A stretch of DNA of 64,000 bases from Leptolyngbyaceae cyanobacterium (GTDB lineage: Bacteria; Cyanobacteriota; Cyanobacteriia; Phormidesmidales; Phormidesmidaceae): NCBI GenBank assembly GCA_050331235.1, contig JBHJHA010000015.1, positions 39,599 through 103,598 of the forward strand, given 5' to 3'. The position numbers and the translations under genes were made by a program. The notes under the pieces were generated by a model. That model made no database searches. It saw only the letters and a program-made list of their open reading frames with translations, and was not told where the DNA came from. This document shows, piece after piece, positions 1-13,412 of this stretch (positions within the stretch are counted from its first letter, which is position 1; each line of letters begins with the position of its first letter).

Positions 1-518
1 CCTTTGTCTTCAAACATATCTAGGAGCCGCAGCACACCCAGGGGTAAGCTCTCGCCGTATAACACTTCCTGGCGATTGCCGATGACCGCCTCTGTACTGC
101 CGCCTCCGATGTCAAACACTAAGGCGGTGTCATCCATGAGCGAGATGGAGTTGCGTACAGCCAGAAAAATTAGGCGTGCTTCCTCTTTACCCGAGATAAT
201 CCTAGGCTCAAGCCCCGTCCGTTGGACTAACTCCGCTAAGAAGGCGTCACCGTTTTGAGCTTCGCGGATAGCGCTCGTAGCGGCGGTAATGACATCATCA
301 ACGCCAACTTGCTCAGCCAATTGCACGTAGCGATGAATGGTTTCGATGCCCGTTTGGAAGGCGCGATCGCTCAGCCGGTTGGTGGCAAAGACTCCAGCCC
401 CCAGCTTGATCATGGCCTTTTCGCGCTCGATCACCTTAAAGTTGCGCTGCGAAACGGCCTCCACGATGATCATGTGAATGGAGTTGGTGCCGATGTCGAT
501 CGCGGCCAGTTTCATCAT
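1..518 (-). CDS. ppx: Ppx/GppA family exopolyphosphatase (N-terminal part; runs off the window edge)
   Basis: Hand translation from ATG at 518: MMKLAAIDIGTNSIHMII...ATSAIREAQNG...IISGKEEARL...FDIGGGSTE...SLPLGVLRL, all hallmark Ppx/GppA (ASKHA) motifs. Absent from the ORF track because there is no stop in the window. Confidence 0.93.
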   Translation of the reverse strand, partial: MMKLAAIDIGTNSIHMIIVEAVSQRNFKVIEREKAMIKLGAGVFATNRLSDRAFQTGIETIHRYVQLAEQVGVDDVITAATSAIREAQNGDAFLAELVQRTGLEPRIISGKEEARLIFLAVRNSISLMDDTALVFDIGGGSTEAVIGNRQEVLYGESLPLGVLRLLDMFEDK

Positions 519-554
519 GGCTACTGTTCCCAGGGTTGAGTCTGCTAGGGCGGC

Positions 555-968
555 TTAGCGCTGCCAAATCCAGCCTACCAAGATCCCTAGAAAAGCTACC
601 GAGCCTAAAACTGCCAGAACAATGGAAACAACGAAAGAAGGTGAGCGGCGAGCCACGTAAATCAGATCGTTTCGCTGAATGCGCTGAAGCTGTTGCCGAT
701 GATCAAAAGCTGCGGCCAACATGGCAAAAGTGCCTAGGGCAATGAACGAAAGTCCGAGAATTCGACTCAGGCGAATCGGATTGCCGACACCCCCCAGGTT
801 TTGCTCTAAGACGGCTACGATGCGATCAATCCCTACGCCAAAGCTGATGAGGGACAGGCTTGTGCGAATCCAGGCCATCAACGTTCGTTCTTCGGCGGCG
901 CGGTTGCGTTCCTTCGCCAGCTCGGTGGCCGGATTAGGCGAGTTGGCGGGCTGGTTAGAGCTAGTCAT
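555..968 (-). CDS. DUF202 (YidH/Vtc1-like) small membrane protein
   Basis: ELAKERNRAAEERTLMAWIRTSLSLISFG motif followed by 3 hydrophobic helices. Confidence 0.88.
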   Translation of the reverse strand: MTSSNQPANSPNPATELAKERNRAAEERTLMAWIRTSLSLISFGVGIDRIVAVLEQNLGGVGNPIRLSRILGLSFIALGTFAMLAAAFDHRQQLQRIQRNDLIYVARRSPSFVVSIVLAVLGSVAFLGILVGWIWQR

Positions 969-1065
969 GCGTTTCTCTTCGACTCAACGGTAGGGCAAAA
1001 ACATCGCGATCACAAAAGCAAATTTTCAGGCAAATCACCTTAGAATAAGGCGCAAGTCTAAAACC

Positions 1066-1515
1066 ATGACGTTTGGCCAAAGTCATTTTGGAACTCCATC
1101 AGCCATGACTCCTCTCCAACCAGAACGGATTACCGGCCCCAATAACGAACTCGCCAAGGAACGCAATCGCGCCGCGGCGGAGCGGACCATGACCGCCTGG
1201 ATCCAAAATTGCTTAACTTTAATTGGCTTCGGTATTGCTGTGGACCAAATCAACCAGGCCCTCGATGCGCGATCAGCGGCCACACTGGTTGCCACAGGAC
1301 CCAGTGTGGCGCCGCTGATCGCGATTGGCTTTGTGGGCTTTGGAATGGCTTTATTGGTCATGGCTTGGCTGCAATATCGGTTAGAGATTCGCTCCATTGA
1401 ACGGGCAGATTATGTGCTGCTCTCGGTTAGTCAGCTAAATCAGATTGTCGGGTGGGCCATTGTTCTGTTTGGCGTTTTATCGGGCATTGCCTTGATTATC
1501 TTTGCTAGGGGCTAG
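1066..1515 (+). CDS. DUF202 (YidH/Vtc1-like) small membrane protein, inverted orientation
   Basis: ELAKERNRAAAERTMTAWIQNCLTLIGFG plus 3 TM segments; start could be 1105. Confidence 0.85.
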   Translation: MTFGQSHFGTPSAMTPLQPERITGPNNELAKERNRAAAERTMTAWIQNCLTLIGFGIAVDQINQALDARSAATLVATGPSVAPLIAIGFVGFGMALLVMAWLQYRLEIRSIERADYVLLSVSQLNQIVGWAIVLFGVLSGIALIIFARG

Positions 1516-1528
1516 GGCGGCGACCGGT

Positions 1529-1933
1529 TTAAGTTACTAACCGAAAGGTGATGAGCGCCACAATTACCAAGGCAATGACAAACAGTGCGATGGCTACTGT
1601 TTCCCCCAGGGGATAGCGCGGTGTGAACGCATAGTCTGACTGATTGAGGCGATGCAGTTCACCGCGGTAGTCGATGGCGGCGATGACCAATGCATAAACG
1701 CCTAAGCCAATCAGCACTAATCCTAAAATATGGGCAAATCGACTCGGATTAATCGCATCCCCAATGCTTTGGTACAGCAAACTCACCGTTTGATCAATCC
1801 CAAATCCGATGCCAATCAGGGTTAAGCTGGTGCGAATCCACGCCAAAAGGCTGCGATCGGCCGCAATACGGTTCCGCTCTTTAGCGAGTTCAAATTGCGT
1901 ATTGGGGGAGGGAGATGAGTCAGGGGAGGACAT
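1529..1933 (-). CDS. DUF202 (YidH/Vtc1-like) small membrane protein
   Basis: ELAKERNRIAADRSLLAWIRTSLTLIGIG plus 3 TM segments. Confidence 0.88.
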   Translation of the reverse strand: MSSPDSSPSPNTQFELAKERNRIAADRSLLAWIRTSLTLIGIGFGIDQTVSLLYQSIGDAINPSRFAHILGLVLIGLGVYALVIAAIDYRGELHRLNQSDYAFTPRYPLGETVAIALFVIALVIVALITFRLVT

Positions 1934-1955
1934 CGCGATTTTATATGCAGGTTAA

Positions 1956-3425
1956 TTAGGTTGGAGTCGTAGCGGGCGTCGCCGTCGCCGCCGCCTGACT
2001 GGACTGCTGTTTGAGCTGTAGTTTGACCCAGGCGTTGTAGGGGGTGGCCACCACCGCTCCCACAATTAGATAAGTCACGATGGAGGGCACCGCTGCCGGC
2101 TGCTGGTTGGCGATCGCAATAAACAACGCTAACCCCGCATTACGAGCGATCGTCGCCGTAGCCACGGCGGCTCGGTCTTCGAGGTTGGGACCGCCGAGCA
2201 CATGACCGATGGCGAGACCAATCGCCACCACCCCGGCAAACGCAATGAGCGTCTTCAGGCTAAATTGAGGCACTAAGTTGATGCTGATGGCTACCAAAAA
2301 GAAGGCCAAGACCAAAAACATTGTGTTGGCTACAGTGATCATCAGCGTGGCAATTTCATCGGCAAAGTCAGCCGAGACCCGCCGGATCAAAATGCCGATG
2401 CCAAGGGGGAGCAACTGCACCGTGGCGATTTGCTTGGCCACCGTCAAAAATGGAATCTGCTCCTCGGCTTGGGGAAAGAGCAGCGCAAACGCTGCTAACA
2501 AGAGGGGGGTAATTACCACGGCCGATGTGGCCAGTAAAATTTGTAGGGCCGCGGCGGTGTTGACGCTGCCCCCCGCCATGTTGACCCGCTTAGTCAGCAG
2601 GGGAGCCGCCGGAGCCGCCGCAAGAATGACTAACGCGATGCTGGAGCGCGGCGATAGCTGAAACAGCCACAGGGAAATCGCAGCTGCCAGCGGAAACAAC
2701 ACCAGCACCGCCACGAGCGATCGCGCCAACAAATTGGGCTGTTGGAATAGGGCCAACAGGCGCTGGGGAGCAACGGCCACGCCAATCGCCAACATAATGA
2801 TGAAGACCACTAGCCCCGCCAAACTCTGGATCAACGGGCTGGTCACTGAGAAAATTTCGCCTAGCTTGATTTCCCCGGAAATAAGGGGCACAAACGCCGC
2901 TAATCCGATAAACAGCAGCACCACCCCCACTGTGAAGCCCAGGGATCCCCCAGGGGAATATTTATATTCCCGGGCTTCGATGCTGCGCAGGGTCGTCCAA
3001 TGGCTGATTAACGCCCCCACCAAAGCCACAATGCCCAAGCCGATGAGACTCAGCCCCAGCAAGCGCTCTTCTGACAGCTGATTGATGCCTGTGGGGGCCC
3101 CGGTTTTGTCCACGTACTTGAAAAATCGGTCAATGCCAAAGCCAAAGCTAATCAGCGATAGCGATGTGCGAATCCAGGCCATAAGGGTTCGTTCTTCGGC
3201 GGCGCGGGTGCGCTCGCGGGCAAGCTCAGTACGAATCTCGGCTAGGTCGGTGCGCTGTTCAGCCAGCCCCGTGCGATTGGTTGACATTGCTGTGCGCTGC
3301 TTGGCCAGGTCGGTGCGATCGCTGGCGAGGTGGGTTCTCACCATCGCCAGTTCCGTGTTGCTCATCCCCTCATAGGGGGAAGCCGGCGTCTCGTCAGAAT
3401 TAGCGGGGGGATTGGTGGCAGTCAT
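1956..3425 (-). CDS. DUF202 domain fused to bile acid:Na+ symporter (BASS/SBF) domain
   Basis: N-terminal RT heptad repeats and ERTLMAWIRTSL; C-terminal multi-TM domain with LAAAPAAP, QLLPLGIGILIRR, GHVLGG and ARNAGLAL motifs typical of BASS. Confidence 0.82.
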   Translation of the reverse strand: MTATNPPANSDETPASPYEGMSNTELAMVRTHLASDRTDLAKQRTAMSTNRTGLAEQRTDLAEIRTELARERTRAAEERTLMAWIRTSLSLISFGFGIDRFFKYVDKTGAPTGINQLSEERLLGLSLIGLGIVALVGALISHWTTLRSIEAREYKYSPGGSLGFTVGVVLLFIGLAAFVPLISGEIKLGEIFSVTSPLIQSLAGLVVFIIMLAIGVAVAPQRLLALFQQPNLLARSLVAVLVLFPLAAAISLWLFQLSPRSSIALVILAAAPAAPLLTKRVNMAGGSVNTAAALQILLATSAVVITPLLLAAFALLFPQAEEQIPFLTVAKQIATVQLLPLGIGILIRRVSADFADEIATLMITVANTMFLVLAFFLVAISINLVPQFSLKTLIAFAGVVAIGLAIGHVLGGPNLEDRAAVATATIARNAGLALFIAIANQQPAAVPSIVTYLIVGAVVATPYNAWVKLQLKQQSSQAAATATPATTPT

Positions 3426-3495: not shown

Positions 3496-4512
3496 TTAAC
3501 TCGAGACTGGCGCAATCAACCGAAAGCCAATATGGGTTGTTCCCGTGTCGGGGGCTTGGGATTCTCGGGCGGCTGGTCGGTAACGGCTGCAATAGTTTTT
3601 AGCGCAAAGATAGGACCCCCCCTTAATCACGTGTACGGCCCCGTCCGCTGGCTTTTTGGGGTCGTAGCTAATGGCCCGATCCGGGCCCGTGGGGTCGGTC
3701 TTGTTGGCTTTGCCGGTGTGCTTGACGGTAAACCAATCGGTGGTCAGCTCCCACACGTTGCCCGTCATGTCGTAAAGGCCATAGCCATTGGGCGGGTAAG
3801 ACATCACGGGAGCTGTCCCTAAGTAGCGATCTGCTTGGGTATTGAAAAAGGGGAACAGCCCCTGCCAAGTGTTGGCGCGGTCTGCCCGGTATTGCTCTCC
3901 CCAGGTATAGGTTTGCCCTGCTTGCCCGCCGCGGGCTGCATATTCCCATTGGGCTTCGGTGGGGAGCGATCGCCCCAGCCAGTCGGCGTAGGCCACGGCA
4001 TCTTCATAGGCAATGTGCACCACGGGGTGATCGGCCTTGCCCTCAAGGGTGCTGTCAGGCCCAAAAGGGTGTTGCCAGTCGGCACCGGGGGTCCAGTGCC
4101 ACCAGCTTAAGTAGGCCACCTGCTCAATGCCTGCCGCCGGTGGTTCAAAAACTAGTGAGCCCGGGATCCTTTGGGCGTCTGGCAAATCGGGAAACTGAGC
4201 TTTGGAGAGCGGTCGTTCGGCCACGGTAGTGTAGCCTGTCGCGGAGACAAAGGCGGCAAAGTCAGCGTTAGTGACCTCATGAGTTGCCATGCAAAAGCTG
4301 CTGACAGTGACATTGGCAGCGGTTTCTTCTTCCACAAAATCGGGATTGTCAGACCCCATGGTAAAGGTGCCCCCCGGAATCAACGCCATGCCATCGGGAC
4401 AGTGGAGCGCAGTCGGGGCCGCGATCGCAGGCGCTACCAACCCCAGCCAGAGACTCAGACATCCCCCTAGGAATAACCATTGGCATTGATCAAAAGCACG
4501 TTTCAAAGTCAC
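3496..4512 (-). CDS. Formylglycine-generating enzyme (sulfatase-modifying factor) with N-terminal signal peptide
   Basis: HPVVHI, LPTEAQWEYAARGG, NGYGLYDMTGNVWE, KGGSYLCAKNYCSRYRPAAR (both catalytic Cys), HIGFR. Confidence 0.92.
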   Translation of the reverse strand: MTLKRAFDQCQWLFLGGCLSLWLGLVAPAIAAPTALHCPDGMALIPGGTFTMGSDNPDFVEEETAANVTVSSFCMATHEVTNADFAAFVSATGYTTVAERPLSKAQFPDLPDAQRIPGSLVFEPPAAGIEQVAYLSWWHWTPGADWQHPFGPDSTLEGKADHPVVHIAYEDAVAYADWLGRSLPTEAQWEYAARGGQAGQTYTWGEQYRADRANTWQGLFPFFNTQADRYLGTAPVMSYPPNGYGLYDMTGNVWELTTDWFTVKHTGKANKTDPTGPDRAISYDPKKPADGAVHVIKGGSYLCAKNYCSRYRPAARESQAPDTGTTHIGFRLIAPVSS

Positions 4513-4656: not shown

Positions 4657-5622
4657 TTAGCGACGGCGCTTTAGGGTTTGTCGGGGCGTCTCGTCAAACA
4701 TCGCTGCATAGGCTTTGGCAAAGTGGCCGAGGCTGTGAAAGCCCCACAGGTGTGCAATATTTGTCACCGTCTCATAGTGCGGATCACCCCGTAATAAAGC
4801 ATTGCGGACCCCATTAAGTCGTTGGTATTTGAGATAAGTCATGGGGCCCATGCCAAAAATTTCTTGAAAGCCATAGCTGAGCGATCGCCGACTAGCGCAG
4901 ACCGCATCACTCAGGTCAGCCAAGGTAATGGGGCGATGCAGATTACTTCGCATGTAGTCTCTAGCAGATTCGATGATTTCGGCTCGACGTAAAGGCTTCA
5001 GGCATTTCGCTGAGGTTGATGTGTGTAGCGTATCCATGAGCAAGGGCAGCAAATCACCCCGAATTAGCCCCGTGGTTTCTGGCGACTGGGCATAGTGGGG
5101 CTGATGGTGCAACACAGCGACTAACTGCTGTAAATACTGGCGATAACCAATCATGGGATCGGTATTCAGCTCAACGATATTACGTCGCAGAAAGGCTGTA
5201 TCTAGCCCATCTTGACCCCTTCGCTCGATCAGACTGTGAAATAGAGTCTGATTAACCTGCACAACGACCAGTTCAAATCCTTGCTCGGCGGTGGCCACAT
5301 TGGTCTCGCGCTGTAGGTCAAAGCCAAAAATGCAGTTGGTCGATATCGGTGTCGCGTGGGCATGGTGTGAGCGGTGGTCTGGACCTAAGAAGGTGGCAAA
5401 GGGTAAGACCTCATTGGGTTTTTGACCCATAATCTCGACTCTACTGTTGAACTTAAGCCATAGGACTGAGCATTGCCGCAAATCAAACCGCATGACCTGC
5501 GCCGCAAAATTGTTCGGCTCAAGTTGCGTAAACACTAGTCCCCATTCTCGAAATGCCGCCGCACATTGATCAGCGTCGTGAAAGTCGAAGCTTTGCAAGG
5601 GGCTGTTCGAATGCATTGACAT
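4657..5622 (-). CDS. AraC family transcriptional regulator
   Basis: C-terminal double HTH: ITLADLSDAVCASRRSL...IAHLWGFHSLGHFAKAYAAMFDETPRQTL. Confidence 0.9.
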   Translation of the reverse strand: MSMHSNSPLQSFDFHDADQCAAAFREWGLVFTQLEPNNFAAQVMRFDLRQCSVLWLKFNSRVEIMGQKPNEVLPFATFLGPDHRSHHAHATPISTNCIFGFDLQRETNVATAEQGFELVVVQVNQTLFHSLIERRGQDGLDTAFLRRNIVELNTDPMIGYRQYLQQLVAVLHHQPHYAQSPETTGLIRGDLLPLLMDTLHTSTSAKCLKPLRRAEIIESARDYMRSNLHRPITLADLSDAVCASRRSLSYGFQEIFGMGPMTYLKYQRLNGVRNALLRGDPHYETVTNIAHLWGFHSLGHFAKAYAAMFDETPRQTLKRRR

Positions 5623-6035: not shown

Positions 6036-7709
6036 ATGCTGCAGAGTTTTCATCATCCGAATCAGCTTCGGACCTGGTTGAAAAGGTCAGCTGCGATCGC
6101 CCTCACGGCTACCTTTCTCTTCGTGGGAAATTTGTCTTGGAGCAGTCCTGCGATCGCCGCGACGTATTCGTCCTATGGCGAGGCCAAAGCCGCGACCACC
6201 AGCACCTCTGAAAAACCCAATATCATCGTGATTTGGGGTGACGACATCGGGCAAAGTGACATCAGTGCCTATACAAAAGGTCTGATGGGCTTCCGGACTC
6301 CCAACATTGACCGCGTTGCTGATGAGGGGATGATCTTTACCGACTATTATGCAGAGCAGAGCTGTACAGCTGGTCGGTCAGCTTTCATTACTGGCCAGAC
6401 TGTATTTCGCACGGGCTTGAGCAAGGTCGGTCTCCCCGGCGCAGACTTGGGGCTCAGGGCCGAAGATCCCACCATTGCCGAACTGTTGAAAGAACAGGGC
6501 TACAACACCGCCCAGTTTGGTAAAAACCACTTGGGTGATAAGGATGAGTTTTTGCCGACAGCCCACGGCTTTGATGAGTTCTACGGCAACCTTTATCACT
6601 TAAACGCCGAAGAAGAGCCGGAACTACGGGACTATCCGCCTGCTGATCGATTCCCCAACTTTAAGAAAAAGTACGGCCCCCGGGGCGTGCTGCATAGCTT
6701 TGCCAAAGCGAATGGTAGTCAGGAAATCGAAGATACCGGCCCGCTCACCAAAAAGCGCATGGAAACTATCGACGACGATATTGCTGATCGCTCGGTGGAA
6801 TACATCAAACAACAAGCCTCGACAGGCGAGCCCTTCTTCCTGTGGACCAACTTTACCCACATGCACTTCCGCACTCACACTAAGCCCGAAAGCTTGGGGC
6901 AATCTGGTCTCTGGCAGTCTTTCTACCATGACACCATGATTGACCACGACAAAAACGTGGGTCAGGTGTTGGATGCGATTGATGAAGCCGGCATTGCTGA
7001 TAACACCATCGTGATTTACAGCACCGATAACGGCCCCCACATGAACTCTTGGCCGGATGCGGCAATGACCCCCTTCCGTAGTGAGAAGGATACGGGTTGG
7101 GAAGGCGCTTTCCGGGTGCCGGCGATGGTGCGCTGGCCGGGACACATCGAGGCTGGCAGTGTCTCTAACGGCATTGTCTCTCACCTTGACTGGATGCCGA
7201 CCTTTCTGGCGGCAGCAGGGGTTCCCGATGTGAAGGAAAAATTGCTGAATGGCTACAAAGCTGATGGCAAGCGCTTTAAGGTGCATCTGGATGGGTACAA
7301 CGTTCTGCCCTATCTAACCGGCGAAGAGAAAGAATCTCCCCGAGAATCGATCTTCTACTTCTCGGATGACGGCGATCTACTGGCCCTGCGGTATGACAAC
7401 TGGAAGATGCATTTTGCGCAGCAGCGGACCCCTGGCACTCTGGATATTTGGGCAGAGCCCTTTACTGAGCTCCGGGTACCTTTCATCTACAACCTGCGGA
7501 CGGATCCCTACGAGAAAGCTAGCATCACATCCAACACCTACTTTGATTGGATGATTGATCACGTTTACCTGTTGACTCCGGCGCAGCAATATGTGGGTGA
7601 ATTCCTGGAAACCTTCAAGGAATATCCGCCGCGCCAGAAAGCTGCTAGTTTCTCCGTTGATCAGGTCCTAGAGAAGCTCGAAAACGGTGCAGTTGGCGCT
7701 GCCTCGTAG
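6036..7709 (+). CDS. Exported Cys-type arylsulfatase
   Basis: KPNIIVIWGDDIG, SCTAGRSAFITG (CxxxR formylglycine motif), GKNHLG, STDNG; N-terminal signal peptide ending AIA; ATG at 6036 preferred. Confidence 0.92.
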   Translation: MLQSFHHPNQLRTWLKRSAAIALTATFLFVGNLSWSSPAIAATYSSYGEAKAATTSTSEKPNIIVIWGDDIGQSDISAYTKGLMGFRTPNIDRVADEGMIFTDYYAEQSCTAGRSAFITGQTVFRTGLSKVGLPGADLGLRAEDPTIAELLKEQGYNTAQFGKNHLGDKDEFLPTAHGFDEFYGNLYHLNAEEEPELRDYPPADRFPNFKKKYGPRGVLHSFAKANGSQEIEDTGPLTKKRMETIDDDIADRSVEYIKQQASTGEPFFLWTNFTHMHFRTHTKPESLGQSGLWQSFYHDTMIDHDKNVGQVLDAIDEAGIADNTIVIYSTDNGPHMNSWPDAAMTPFRSEKDTGWEGAFRVPAMVRWPGHIEAGSVSNGIVSHLDWMPTFLAAAGVPDVKEKLLNGYKADGKRFKVHLDGYNVLPYLTGEEKESPRESIFYFSDDGDLLALRYDNWKMHFAQQRTPGTLDIWAEPFTELRVPFIYNLRTDPYEKASITSNTYFDWMIDHVYLLTPAQQYVGEFLETFKEYPPRQKAASFSVDQVLEKLENGAVGAAS

Positions 7710-7890: not shown

Positions 7891-10350
7891 ATGAAATCTT
7901 CCGTTACTGCAACCATCATTCTGTTTTTCTCGGGGCTGGCAGCCCTGATTTATCAAACCATTTGGATTAAGCAACTGGCACTCGTGGTGGGTGTTGAGGT
8001 CTATGCTGTCACCATTGGCATCAGTGCATTCTTTACTGGGCTAGCACTGGGCAATTTATGGATTGGCCGCTGGACCGATCGCAGCAAAACTCCTTTGAGA
8101 CTCTATGCGGGTTTAGAGTTCGGCATTGCTATTACAGGAGTTGCCACCACCTGGACCTTGGCCCATAGCGATCGCCTTTTTGTCTCCCTGCAAGACACCG
8201 TCGGATTCTTGGCCTGGGGCTGGCCTTTGTTGTTGGTTGGTATTCCCGCAACGCTGATGGGGGGCACATTGGTAGCGTTGCTGAGAGCCTGTGAACCCGC
8301 CGAGGAGTTGGTCGGGCGCACCGCTGGGCTGCTCTATGCTGCCAATACCGCTGGCGCGATCGCCGGCACCTTAATCACCGCTTTTTACCTGATTGTCAAT
8401 TTAGGTATCCAACACACAGCCTGGGCTGCCGCCACTATTAATATCATTCTGGCGCTAGCTGCCCTTTCACTTCAGTCCGTGTGGCAACCCGCAGTACCTT
8501 CTCCCAATCTCTTGGCAAAACCTCAGCAGCGGGTGTCTTTGGCTTTAGTGCTGTACGCGATCGCTGGAGGACTGGCGCTGGGCTATGAGGTCATTTGGAC
8601 CCAAGCCATTGTGCAGTTTTTGAGCACGCGAGCCTACGCCTTCGCCGTCATCCTCGCGACCTATTTATTGGGCCTAACGTTGGGCAGCTGGGTGATCTCG
8701 TTTTGGAGCGATCGCCTGCGTTATCCCTGGGTGGTATTTGGCAGTTTGATTGCTAGTGCGGGCATCTTTGCCTTGGCTAGCTTTACCTTCACAGATATTT
8801 GGCTGCTCAAAGCTCAGCATGATTGGGGGCTATGGGCCTGGCAACTGACCCACAACCGCATGGCCATGAAACTCACCACTTTTGCTGTGGCCACAGGTGT
8901 CTTTGTCTTACTGCCCACCCTTTGCTTAGGCGCTGCCTATCCCCTGGCGATTCGGCTGGTAACCCGCACTCAGCATGTTGGAAAAGACACAGGCTTGCTG
9001 ACGGCGTTAAATACGCTGGGGGGTATCGTGGGGACGGGAGTGACCGGATTTCTCTTGGTGCCCCATTTAGGACTTGTCCACAGTATGGTCTTATTGGCAG
9101 GGGTCGCGACAATCGTAGGGGCGATCGCCGTTCTACAAGCAGCGACGGGACCTGCGAGCAAAGTCGCCATTGGTACCGCTGTAGTCGCGGTGATGGGGTT
9201 GGCAGTCATCACCCCAGCCGACAACTTTGCCCAAATGCTGACGATTCAACATCCCGGCAAATTGCTGTTTCATCAAGAAAGCGCCGGTAATACCGTTGCT
9301 GTGATTGAGCAGCCCACCTCCCAAGGCTCATTTCATCGACTGTATATTCAGGGTGTCTCCAATACGGGCGATGTCTTCCCTTCTCTGCGCTACATGCGAT
9401 TGCAGGCGCTATTGCCGTTGATCATTCATTCCGGGCAGCCTCGATCGGCCATGGTGGTGGGGCTGGGCTCTGGCATCACGAGTGGTTCGCTGTTGACCTA
9501 CCCTGACCTAGAGGAGCAAGTCACCTACGAGCTACTACCCCCGGTAATCGAAGCGGCTCAAACATTTGATGGCAATTTTGAGGTGACGCGCAATCCTCGG
9601 GCGACGATTGAAATTAGTGATGGTCGCCATGAGCTTTTGCGGACTCAAAAGCAATTTGATCTCATTACATTGGAGCCTCCCCCACCTTCTGCCTCTGGAG
9701 TCGTGAACTTGTACTCTCGTGACTTTTACGAACTGGCAAAATCGAAGCTAGCTCCCGATGGCTTATTTGCCCAATGGTGGCCACTAGCTACCCAAAATGA
9801 TGCTGATTCGCGATCGTTGGCACGCAGTATGCTCGATGCGTTTCCCTATGTCACGGTATGGAGTACCGAGTTTCACGAAATGATGCTGATCGGTTCCATG
9901 TGCCCTCTAGAGCTGCAGCCTGAGCAGATCCGCGAGCGGTTTGCCATTCCCTCGATTCAAACGGCGCTAACCGAAATTGGGATCCAATCACCTCAGGCCT
10001 TACTGGCCACCTATGTCACCGATCGCACTGGCCTGGAGAGCTATGTACAGGATGCGCCTGCGGTTACCGATGACCGCCCTTTGATCGAATATGCCGACTG
10101 GGTGCGCCCCGGAGAAATTGCTCGGGTATTGCCAGAAGTCATGAAAACAAATACTGTAGTGCCGCTACCCAAAGATGATCCTTGGCAGGCTGAAATTAAT
10201 CAGGAACGATACAACCTGTCACGTTTGTATAAAGCCCAATTGTCCTTATACGAAGGGGAAGACAATGACTGGTATTACCAAATTGTCGAAGTGTTGGAGG
10301 CCGACCCCGACAATGCTTACTATCGATGGATGTTCAAAGAAAGTACCTAA
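7891..10350 (+). CDS. Fused MFS-like membrane / spermidine synthase-like SAM-binding protein
   Basis: About 12 TM helices with SGLAALIYQ and LYAANTAGAIAG motifs; C-terminal VVGLGSGIT, DGRH, FDLITLEPPPP, NLYSRDFY. Confidence 0.85.
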   Translation: MKSSVTATIILFFSGLAALIYQTIWIKQLALVVGVEVYAVTIGISAFFTGLALGNLWIGRWTDRSKTPLRLYAGLEFGIAITGVATTWTLAHSDRLFVSLQDTVGFLAWGWPLLLVGIPATLMGGTLVALLRACEPAEELVGRTAGLLYAANTAGAIAGTLITAFYLIVNLGIQHTAWAAATINIILALAALSLQSVWQPAVPSPNLLAKPQQRVSLALVLYAIAGGLALGYEVIWTQAIVQFLSTRAYAFAVILATYLLGLTLGSWVISFWSDRLRYPWVVFGSLIASAGIFALASFTFTDIWLLKAQHDWGLWAWQLTHNRMAMKLTTFAVATGVFVLLPTLCLGAAYPLAIRLVTRTQHVGKDTGLLTALNTLGGIVGTGVTGFLLVPHLGLVHSMVLLAGVATIVGAIAVLQAATGPASKVAIGTAVVAVMGLAVITPADNFAQMLTIQHPGKLLFHQESAGNTVAVIEQPTSQGSFHRLYIQGVSNTGDVFPSLRYMRLQALLPLIIHSGQPRSAMVVGLGSGITSGSLLTYPDLEEQVTYELLPPVIEAAQTFDGNFEVTRNPRATIEISDGRHELLRTQKQFDLITLEPPPPSASGVVNLYSRDFYELAKSKLAPDGLFAQWWPLATQNDADSRSLARSMLDAFPYVTVWSTEFHEMMLIGSMCPLELQPEQIRERFAIPSIQTALTEIGIQSPQALLATYVTDRTGLESYVQDAPAVTDDRPLIEYADWVRPGEIARVLPEVMKTNTVVPLPKDDPWQAEINQERYNLSRLYKAQLSLYEGEDNDWYYQIVEVLEADPDNAYYRWMFKEST

Positions 10351-11633: not shown

Positions 11634-13412
11634 ATGCTGACGCTAACCCAGGTTTGGGGTGCACTCTTGATCTTAGTCCTTGGACCACTGGTGGGTGCCC
11701 TGCCGCTGAGTCATTGGGTGACTTATTCCTTGGCTGGGACGCGATCGCGCACGCTACCGCCTGGCAATGTGGGGGTACCCGTGGCGTTTGCGGTGGGGGG
11801 CACGCTGGCGGGCGGTCTCGCCCTGCTGCTAGAGGCGGCCAAGGGCGTGGGTGTTGTATGGCTAGCGCGCTACTACTTTCCGACCGACGCCACTTGGGAG
11901 GTGGTGGCGCTAATGGCGTTGGTCATGGGGCGTTACTGGTCGGCCAAGGCCGTGGGGACGACCAGCGTGCTCTGGGGGGCGATCGCCCATCGCCCGGTTA
12001 CAGCTGGACTCACCTTACTCGTCAGCTTTTTAGGCTTTACGATCTTTCGGGAACGGCAGCAGGGGCGCTGGCTGGTCTTGATTTTGTTTCCGCTGATGAC
12101 AGCGCTCAATCAAGCCAGCGGCATGCAAGTTTTGATGACGGTCTGCTTGAGCGGACTGATCGGGTGGATTTACCAAACCATTCCAGAAGACTTGGAGGTG
12201 CCCACGCCGGCTACTCGCTTGGAGTCACGCCGCTTGTTTGGGTTCTTTCGCAGCGATCGCGCATTGCTGTCCCTCGCTCAACCCTTGGATGCCGCAACTG
12301 CCGGGAGTCAAGCGGCTCACTTATCCCAGCTCATGGCGGCGGGGTATCCCGTGCCCCAGGGCTATGTGCTGCCTGCTGGCGATGATCCGACTATGCTGCT
12401 GGAGATTACTCAGCCTACGGTCGCAGCGCCGGTGACCGTGCAGCCATCGCTAATGAGTGACGTCCCGGCGATCGCGGCCAGTGCGGGTCAATACTTTACC
12501 CAGTCGGACATTACCTCGCCCGAGGCGCTATATGTCGCCATCAATCGTTGCTTTAGCACCTACGACCAGCCCCATGCTCGGCAATATCGGCGCGATCGCG
12601 ATTTGCCCGAGGGCGGTTTAGCCGTTTTGGTACAGCAGCAAGTCCTAAGCCTGTGCGGTGGGGTAGCCGCCAGCCGTGCTCCCTTTACTGGGCAGGGGGA
12701 TGCCGTCATCATCGAGGCGCTCCTAGGACCGAGTACTCAAGTGACGGCCGGTCAGCGGTTACCCGAACGCTACGAAGTGACCGTACAGGTAGACGATTTG
12801 CCGAGCGATCGTGCTGATGCCGAGGGTTGGCAGCTACCTGAGGCCCTGACGCTAACGGTCACGGGCACAGGCGAGGTGCCACACCGGCTGCTGCAGGCAG
12901 TTGCCTTTTTAGCCCGTCATTTAGAACGGCAGTCCCATGGCATTCCCCAACTGGTGGAGTGGAGTTTTGATGGCGATCGCCTGTGGCTATTGCGCAGTCG
13001 TCCCCAAATCCCCACGGCTGCCCTGCCTGACGAGCGGGCTGCTGCCCTGCCCGGCACGGGAGATGTCGATGTTTCCACTACTCCCCTCCGGTCGGCCATT
13101 ACTGGGTTACCCGTCTGTCCAGGAACCGTGATGGGTCAGGTACATGTCCTGCAAGCGTTGAAAGATGTGCAAACCCTGCCCGCTGAAAGTATTTTGGTGG
13201 TGCCTTATCTTAAGGCCAGCGAGCTGCCTGCGATCGCTCAGACGGGGGTGAAAGGACTCATTGCTGAAGCCGGAGGACAACTTTCTGATGGCGCGATCAC
13301 AGCCCGAGAATATGGCTTGCCCACGGTCATCCTGCCACATCGGCAAAATCACTTAGTTGCCCGACAGAGAGTCCGCCTCAATGGCGCGATTGGCTCAGTA
13401 GAATTGCTGTGA
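11634..13412 (+). CDS. PlsY-like acyltransferase fused to degenerate PEP-utilising (PPDK-like) domains
   Basis: N-terminal TM domain with GNVGV and EAAKG; GYPVPQG, ASAGQY, AVLVQQQV, VEWSFDG; swivelling domain GGQLSDGAITAREYGLP. Confidence 0.78.
   Translation: MLTLTQVWGALLILVLGPLVGALPLSHWVTYSLAGTRSRTLPPGNVGVPVAFAVGGTLAGGLALLLEAAKGVGVVWLARYYFPTDATWEVVALMALVMGRYWSAKAVGTTSVLWGAIAHRPVTAGLTLLVSFLGFTIFRERQQGRWLVLILFPLMTALNQASGMQVLMTVCLSGLIGWIYQTIPEDLEVPTPATRLESRRLFGFFRSDRALLSLAQPLDAATAGSQAAHLSQLMAAGYPVPQGYVLPAGDDPTMLLEITQPTVAAPVTVQPSLMSDVPAIAASAGQYFTQSDITSPEALYVAINRCFSTYDQPHARQYRRDRDLPEGGLAVLVQQQVLSLCGGVAASRAPFTGQGDAVIIEALLGPSTQVTAGQRLPERYEVTVQVDDLPSDRADAEGWQLPEALTLTVTGTGEVPHRLLQAVAFLARHLERQSHGIPQLVEWSFDGDRLWLLRSRPQIPTAALPDERAAALPGTGDVDVSTTPLRSAITGLPVCPGTVMGQVHVLQALKDVQTLPAESILVVPYLKASELPAIAQTGVKGLIAEAGGQLSDGAITAREYGLPTVILPHRQNHLVARQRVRLNGAIGSVELL

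Follow-up and report, generated by a model that had tools for sequence, protein, structure and literature searches.

Does a cyanobacterial locus in which four DUF202 genes lie beside an exopolyphosphatase gene encode a bacterial counterpart of the yeast VTC pore, and is polyphosphate its business? The DNA analysed, called the window below, is a stretch of 64,000 nucleotides from a Leptolyngbyaceae cyanobacterium (assembly GCA_050331235.1, contig JBHJHA010000015.1, positions 39,599 to 103,598). Its left end holds four consecutive DUF202 genes, named A, B, C and D here, and the start of a ppx gene. An earlier note on this DNA, made without database searches, had proposed a heteromeric channel for polyphosphate, phosphate or sulfate, coupled to a Na+-driven carrier and to polyphosphate turnover by Ppx. 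The four proteins are homologues of the VTC transmembrane pore module, not a VTC polymerase complex. The reading that we prefer, with a probability of about 0.45, is that they form a mixed, arginine-lined anion ring that would work like the VTC pore and whose D-containing form would be tied to the use of sulfate esters.

Organization of the four DUF202 genes

The genes in question are the following.

968-555, minus strand: DUF202 paralogue A, 137 amino acids, three helices (Pfam and AlphaFold2 model)
1105-1515, plus strand: DUF202 paralogue B, 136 amino acids from the ATG at 1105, with a further ATG upstream at 1066
1933-1529, minus strand: DUF202 paralogue C, 134 amino acids (Pfam)
3425-1956, minus strand: D as a whole, a fusion of DUF202 with an SBF/BASS domain (Pfam)
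1..518, minus strand: 5' part of ppx, encoding an accessory Ppx of 521 amino acids in full

Read from the right, the order in the window is D, C, B (reversed), A and ppx. B is divergent from A and convergent with C, and because it lies on the opposite strand the four genes cannot share one transcript here. All four carry the LA(K/R)ER(N/T)Rxxx(E/D)R(T/S)xxAWI motif recognized earlier, and these four consecutive open reading frames (ORFs) pass the Pfam PF02656 gathering threshold (49.8-65.4 bits versus 23.4). The source genome, which is 95.5% complete, gave no DUF202 matches beyond them. The three transmembrane helices ascribed to these proteins agree with the AlphaFold2 model of A, in which three long helices were seen, and the distance between the stop of A and the start of ppx on the same strand was measured as 36 nucleotides, as the earlier note had it. 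That note did not mention the opposite strand of B, an arginine-heptad extension of a helix in D, or the formylglycine-generating enzyme (FGE), AraC and arylsulfatase genes to the right.

Homology to the yeast VTC pore

A profile built from 100 sequences hit Vtc1 over positions 17/18-120 with E values of 4e-4 to 1e-3, and these were the four best matches in the PDB; a four-sequence profile found Vtc1 weakly (E 1.2-2). The AlphaFold2 model of A had a predicted local distance difference test score (pLDDT) of 75. When it was compared with known structures, VTC chains occupied ranks 1-10 in Foldseek, none of them at E<=0.001, and ranks 1-2 in VIA-align (Z 12.6 and 12.5, root-mean-square deviation 2.1 Å over 108-109 residues). 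The VTC-likeness of the DUF202 proteins was confirmed in that VTC chains were the top matches by profile, Foldseek and VIA-align alike. The locus shares with VTC (Vtc1, Vtc3 and Vtc4; PDB 7YTJ, 8I6V and 9UMG) the three-helix fold and the presence of several diverged paralogues, one of which bears a large fused domain. In VTC, however, the fused partner is a polymerase, whereas here it is a carrier, and the four cyanobacterial proteins have neither a TTM/VTC catalytic domain nor an SPX domain by Pfam.

According to the VTC structure papers (bioRxiv 10.1101/2023.01.27.525886, PMC9911596), the subunits of the VTC heteropentamer share about 15% identity, K24 and R31 of Vtc1 form two basic pore rings, and E30 and R83 make an inter-subunit salt bridge, or lock. 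R21, E27 and R28 of A correspond to Vtc1 K24, E30 and R31, so that both basic rings of the first transmembrane helix and the acidic lock residue are matched; R31 was aligned directly in the profile alignment, and the K24 correspondence was obtained by counting seven residues back. R21 and R28 were invariant (100/100 alignment rows), and the upstream arginine was present in 141 of 142 distant representatives with a locatable motif. A, C and D possess an additional arginine seven residues further in (R35 in A), which amounts to a ring more than in VTC. Leaving out 4 proteins without the motif, it was found in 81/81 A-type, 48/48 C-type and 29/29 D-type proteins and in 5/60 of the B type. C-type proteins have Asp for Glu before the ring arginine in 46 of 48 cases, and in D the residues R72, E78, R79 and R86 were conserved in 104-105 of 105 homologues.

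It is likely that these proteins form rings, and conduction of anions by the ring is slightly favoured. Complex prediction with two copies of A, C and the DUF202 domain of D, with B as partner, scored 0.21 against a mark of 0.32; controls were not folded, and the result is evidence for neither side.

Conservation of the set and the case for a mixed ring

We surveyed 94 loci, comprising the locus itself, 20 from relatives and 73 that remained after 7 duplicates were removed from 80. Those 80 were the best of 337 by similarity to A, which biases the counts of conservation and nesting toward A. Contig ends truncate some of the 94 loci, and in seven cases a gene that had slipped past the motif or ORF filter was added to the composition by hand. 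A occurred alone in 22 loci and two types together in 6; ABC sets were found in 26, sets with D in 29 and other compositions in 11. Single chromosomal copies were A-like and pairs were mostly A+B. The commonest gene order was C, B reversed, A, D, and in 4 loci D-C-B-A all lay on one strand with gaps of mostly 6-32 nucleotides. The four-gene cassette, with one each of A, B, C and D, was present in 8 of 40 relatives. Within the genus, 7 of the 13 genomes besides the source genome had the cassette and 6 gave no DUF202 match. The cassette was also carried on a plasmid, that of Leptolyngbya sp. BL0902, and extra partial sets occurred in some genomes. In one genus the subfamily was found in 36/40 genomes. 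A plasmid search for an ANERT-type single copy gave no match.

In phylogenetic trees the proteins clustered by type and not by genome (8 label changes versus 62 when shuffled), with strong support for B and weaker support for A, C and D. Among four relatives, nonsynonymous divergence (dN) was 0.03-0.17 versus a synonymous divergence (dS) of 0.66-2.9. By these sequence comparisons, the four types are orthologous groups of long standing on which purifying selection acts. The sets are nested and non-redundant (A, AB, ABC, ABCD), which suggests co-assembly. The pattern would fit a homomer that diversified into a heteromer, and we infer co-assembly here from genomics.

The same data bear on another explanation, in which each paralogue would form a separate homo-oligomeric ring with its own regulation and the set would be kept because its members serve a common physiological purpose. 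A-like genes stand alone in complete genomes, so A must be able to function in the absence of the other three. In addition, B is usually transcribed divergently from A, and D keeps every pore residue and has a heptad stalk that would suit a homo-oligomeric coiled coil. Against separate rings, B and C were almost never found without A (in a sample that favoured A), B has lost the arginine that A, C and D keep, one-strand D-C-B-A arrangements exist, and in the VTC precedent subunits of about 15% identity form a heteropentamer. Separate rings are considered unlikely, and a mixed assembly is moderately favoured over them. In such a mixed ring the four proteins would co-assemble so that their first helices form an arginine-lined anion pore. 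A would be the core subunit; B and C would have arisen by duplication and would alter the pore, with B dropping the third arginine ring.

Polyphosphate genes near the cassette

A link to polyphosphate turnover through Ppx, as proposed earlier, found no support. A ppx gene lay near DUF202 genes in 1 of the 94 loci, namely the locus itself, and ppk1, ppk2 or CYTH genes lay near the cassette in 0/94, against a background of 3.5% of 20-kb windows. None of these genes was found in 80 metagenome loci or in 38 further loci, some of which repeat earlier genomes. Reciprocally, DUF202 was found within 1.5 kb of 0/29 other orthologues of this ppx. No positive co-occurrence was seen at the genome level either: among 92 genomes, three or more DUF202 copies were present in 6 of the 36 that carry the accessory ppx and in 20 of the 56 that lack it, a count which assumes that all genomes of the ppx survey at least 90% complete lie among the 123 searched for DUF202. 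In agreement with the earlier note, which saw no VTC catalytic (CYTH/TTM) domain in the window, Pfam detected none in the four proteins. VTC domain PF09359 was not found anywhere in the 95.5% complete source genome by a search that matched 3 of 14 controls, and the only CYTH gene of this genome lies on another contig.

In the source genome ppk1, ppk2 and ppx are each present twice. The ppx of the window (L001 16552-18117) is a patchily distributed second, long-form copy, 37% identical to the core copy on contig C29. Its product is a complete 521-amino-acid Ppx-GppA/HD protein that extends leftward beyond the window. Orthologues of the accessory ppx were seen in unrelated neighbourhoods, several of them with an internal stop.

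A ring that moves polyphosphate or phosphate and works with the adjacent Ppx would be in keeping with the VTC homology and the basic rings, with the ppk and ppx genes of the genome, and with the 36-nucleotide, same-strand distance between A and ppx, across which read-through from A into ppx in the source genome is possible. Such a channel is nevertheless very improbable in view of neighbourhood counts at or below background, the negative metagenome, further-locus and reciprocal searches, the lower proportion of genomes with three or more copies among those with the accessory ppx, and the failure to find a VTC polymerase domain in the source genome. The polyphosphate reading, the exciting one, is unsupported, and the adjacency of A and ppx is most plausibly explained by a site of insertion reached by chance.

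Subunit D carries an arginine stalk and a BASS carrier

D is divided as follows, all on the minus strand.

3213..3359: heptad stretch, residues 23-71, with an arginine every 7 residues
2877..3212: DUF202 domain, residues 72-183
1956..2837: BASS/SLC10-fold carrier, residues 197-489, with nine predicted membrane helices

The first helix of D is lengthened by whole heptads, whose arginines recur at 7-residue intervals in phase with those of the pore, and residues 23-107 were modelled as one continuous helix including the first transmembrane helix. Of 120 homologues in which the motif could be located, 117 had between 1 and 10 upstream arginines. Pfam placed the SBF/BASS domain at residues 205-384 (PF01758, 59.6 bits versus 24.3). 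The model reached a pLDDT of 88; all 27 of its Foldseek matches at E<=0.001 were ASBT and NTCP (E 6e-9), and a search of the ESM Atlas with this domain returned only SBF clusters. A nine-helix carrier behind a three-helix domain would be topologically compatible.

The Na1 and Na2 ligands of ASBT-NM and NTCP were taken from PMC9242856 and bioRxiv 10.1101/2023.06.02.543391. Every Na1/Na2 side chain was replaced in D and no ligand was identical (ASBT-NM numbering first: Q77>V240, S114>L277, N115>T278, S128>A291, T132>Q295, E260>A424 and Q264>R428). The Na2 glutamine position was arginine (R428) in 104/105 homologues, and the crossover motif reads Arg428-Asn429, the crossover asparagine N429 being conserved in 104/105. 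D thus resembles the BASS/SLC10 carriers (ASBT-NM, ASBT-Yf and NTCP) in its fold, crossover helices and crossover asparagine, but differs from them in having no canonical Na1/Na2 ligands and in being a nine-helix, NTCP-like form fused behind DUF202. Because the canonical ligands are replaced and the crossover carries an arginine, a Na+-driven mechanism is unsupported; the fusion to a BASS protein that the earlier note saw in D is borne out by Pfam and fold. From general transporter knowledge, the arginine at the Na2 site could replace Na+ or provide a binding site for an anionic substrate. In the mixed ring that we prefer, one helix of the pore would be prolonged by D into an arginine-striped cytoplasmic stalk, and D would keep its Arg-type BASS carrier, which would be independent of Na+, tethered next to the pore.

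The fusion also brings up a non-conducting alternative, in which a DUF202 ring would be a membrane scaffold or accessory that clusters or stabilizes carriers (BASS, MFS or SSS). D is itself a fusion of DUF202 with a carrier, and unfused DUF202 genes adjoin BASS, MFS or SSS carriers. This explanation is improbable, as invariant arginines spaced by seven residues, on the helix that lines the VTC pore, are hard to explain by it, and many loci have no carrier neighbour.

D-containing cassettes lie in a sulfatase island

To the right of D the window contains the following genes.

3496..4512, minus strand: FGE-family (sulfatase-maturing enzyme) gene (Pfam)
4657..5622, minus strand: AraC-family regulator, divergent from the arylsulfatase gene (Pfam)
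6036..7709, plus strand: arylsulfatase with a Cys-type motif and, by eye, a signal-peptide-like N-terminus
7891-10350: fused MFS/spermidine-synthase-like gene, 819 amino acids, directly downstream of the arylsulfatase gene

The FGE-family gene is on the strand of D and ends 70 nucleotides ahead of the D start. Among D-containing loci of at least 10 kb, a sulfatase gene was found in 16/24, FGE in 15/24, an MFS sugar-transporter-family gene in 15/24 and UPF0114 in 16/24; the sulfatase background was 1.7% of random 20-kb windows of the source genome. Cassettes that include D are part of a mobile sulfatase island. Of the recurrent neighbours that the earlier note had suggested looking for in multi-DUF202 loci, sulfatase genes did recur, in D-containing loci, and ppx, ppk and CYTH genes did not. 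The island copies share ancestry, so that the sulfatase counts are not independent, and the E. coli case described below is a separate clade. In the heptad-type clade, metagenome loci of at least 5 kb contained a sulfatase gene in 18/42 and a radical-SAM maturase-like gene in 15/42.

Non-cyanobacterial plasmids gave a related picture in the 8 of 14 records examined. A sulfatase gene lay beside the DUF202 gene in 3/8, two of these having a separate BASS gene that bears the crossover arginine. On Paraburkholderia and Phyllobacterium plasmids, DUF202 and Arg-type BASS genes are separate neighbours beside sulfatase and maturase genes, implying that D joins what elsewhere are separate but co-occurring genes. 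Another 2/8 carried sulfite oxidase or molybdopterin oxidoreductase together with a putative sulfate exporter, 1/8 had a cysteine dioxygenase family gene nearby, and in 2/8 a sulfur link was not seen.

E. coli yidG and yidH both belong to DUF202 and lie beside the sulfatase yidJ, the symporter yidK and the AraC gene yidL. The arrangement is thus similar in Pfam family, in side-by-side paralogues and in having sulfatase, symporter and AraC neighbours. It differs in that YidG/YidH are a separate clade with long branches, that two overlapping same-strand genes are present instead of three or four, and that the carrier is a separate SSS protein. A likeness of YidI, encoded on the opposite strand in E. 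coli, to the position of B was dismissed as a coincidence, YidI not being a DUF202 protein.

The mixed context of the family also accommodates a general leak for small anions or solutes, serving ion or osmotic balance, of which the sulfatase island would merely carry a copy. ABC cassettes and single genes occur in varied non-sulfur contexts, and the island neighbours include CLC, MscS and SulP. Furthermore, according to PMC10299036, a clone of E. coli yidH came through three rounds of screening for D-alanine cross-feeding, with no export in a direct assay. We regard a general leak as quite unlikely, because two or more distinct DUF202 clades (heptad-type/this subfamily, and YidG/YidH) have sulfatase genes as recurrent neighbours.

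Several other features of these neighbourhoods were recorded. The island recurrently carries UPF0114, DUF1622, MarC-like, CLC, MscS, SulP, DUF1254/1214, DUF3300/2950 and a PF03458 protein, and it holds several ORF clusters without a Pfam match. The Arg-type BASS subfamily, fused or free, recurs in sulfatase islands across phyla. On a Sphingomonas plasmid a distant DUF202 gene and a sulfite oxidase gene overlap in 1 nucleotide, with a putative sulfate exporter nearby, and Methylobacterium has a similar set.

Island membrane-gene set: L006-L013, L031, L037, L049, L051, L069; L151-L230
Arg-type BASS: window 1956-2837; L008 4027-6008; L144 8505-9326; L145 10157-11023
Distant DUF202 loci linked to sulfite oxidase: L147 6826-8348; L150 3806-9251

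Other genes of the locus

To the left of ppx lie core genes, among them prmC, which matches Pfam methyltransferases, and others that we take from their translations to be hom, petH, prk and zwf. The presumed zwf (L001 7975-9504) consists of two abutting ORFs of 206 and 302 amino acids, which suggests an in-frame stop or an assembly error in a core gene. The fused MFS/spermidine-synthase-like gene was absent from the other 93 surveyed loci. A 592-amino-acid membrane protein is encoded at 11634-13412 of the window; its C-terminal part presumably resembles a PEP-utiliser mobile domain. A scan for promoters and terminators remained at the level of shuffled sequence (2 versus 1.6 and 4 versus 3.6). 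An island border was not clearly visible in the profiles of GC content and of GC content at third codon positions (GC3), and D was the sole gene of deviating composition (GC3 0.70 versus a mean of 0.58, standard deviation 0.05).

Discussion

The evidence for a VTC-like anion ring comes from the fold, the arginine rings and the nested gene sets, and that for a sulfur role from the neighbours of D. As the membrane is inside-negative, a passive pore would let anions out, and the ring would probably serve to discharge excess sulfate or some other anion, an organic anion being handled by the carrier. The carrier-fused four-gene version would then serve sulfate-ester breakdown rather than polyphosphate. 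That the cargo is sulfate or a related oxyanion is possible, though rather doubtful.

A number of observations weigh against this reading. In structure comparison, helical bundles of BAR domains followed close behind VTC in VIA-align (Z 11.8). Vtc1 R83 is out of register in A, where by hand count on the profile alignment it falls on Gln93; the acidic lock residue is conserved, and R91, R96 and R99 of A lie near and could replace R83. In the majority of loci B lies on the other strand, genome G457 has B and C with A undetected and B near a contig end, and the choice of survey loci by similarity to A favours A in the conservation and nesting counts. Sulfatase genes were found in only 2/21 ABC-only and 1/14 A-only loci of at least 10 kb, and many ABC-only cassettes sit among housekeeping genes; together with the presence of the subfamily in 36/40 genomes of one genus, this means that the function must extend beyond the use of sulfate esters. 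Among the contents of the island are many unrelated membrane genes (MFS, UPF0114, DUF1622, MarC, CLC, MscS and SulP), which, given the shared ancestry of its copies, implies that co-residence may not mean direct coupling. A general link between DUF202 and sulfite oxidase was not borne out, since 0/6 further relatives of the sulfite-oxidase-linked gene showed a sulfite-oxidase/sulfate-exporter context. Finally, the sulfatase of the window appears to be exported, so that sulfate would be released outside the cytoplasm, which is a poor fit to an efflux pore.

DUF202 was present in 139 of 401 genomes sampled within the phylum and counts 6127 representatives at 50% identity. No function of bacterial DUF202 was found in the literature searched, which covered only a minority of subscription papers. 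Nor was a description of a bacterial Vtc1-like complex found there, although an earlier one is possible. In the text searched, DUF202 was mentioned only as a domain of VTC, the other hits being false matches to DUF2023 or DUF2024.

More speculatively, the VTC pore may persist in bacteria as a channel family in its own right, and cyanobacteria may have independently rebuilt a VTC-like heteropentamer from four paralogues, the polymerase being replaced by a tethered Na+-independent carrier and an arginine-striped cytoplasmic stalk, so that carrier and channel together would make up a machine that uses organosulfates and releases sulfate. D points to an Arg-type BASS subfamily unable to use the canonical Na+ sites. 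As a bacterial counterpart of the VTC pore, the cassette is small and open to experiment, and its asymmetry is built in, B having one arginine ring less; it could show what role the pore had before it joined a polyphosphate polymerase and how homomers become heteromers.

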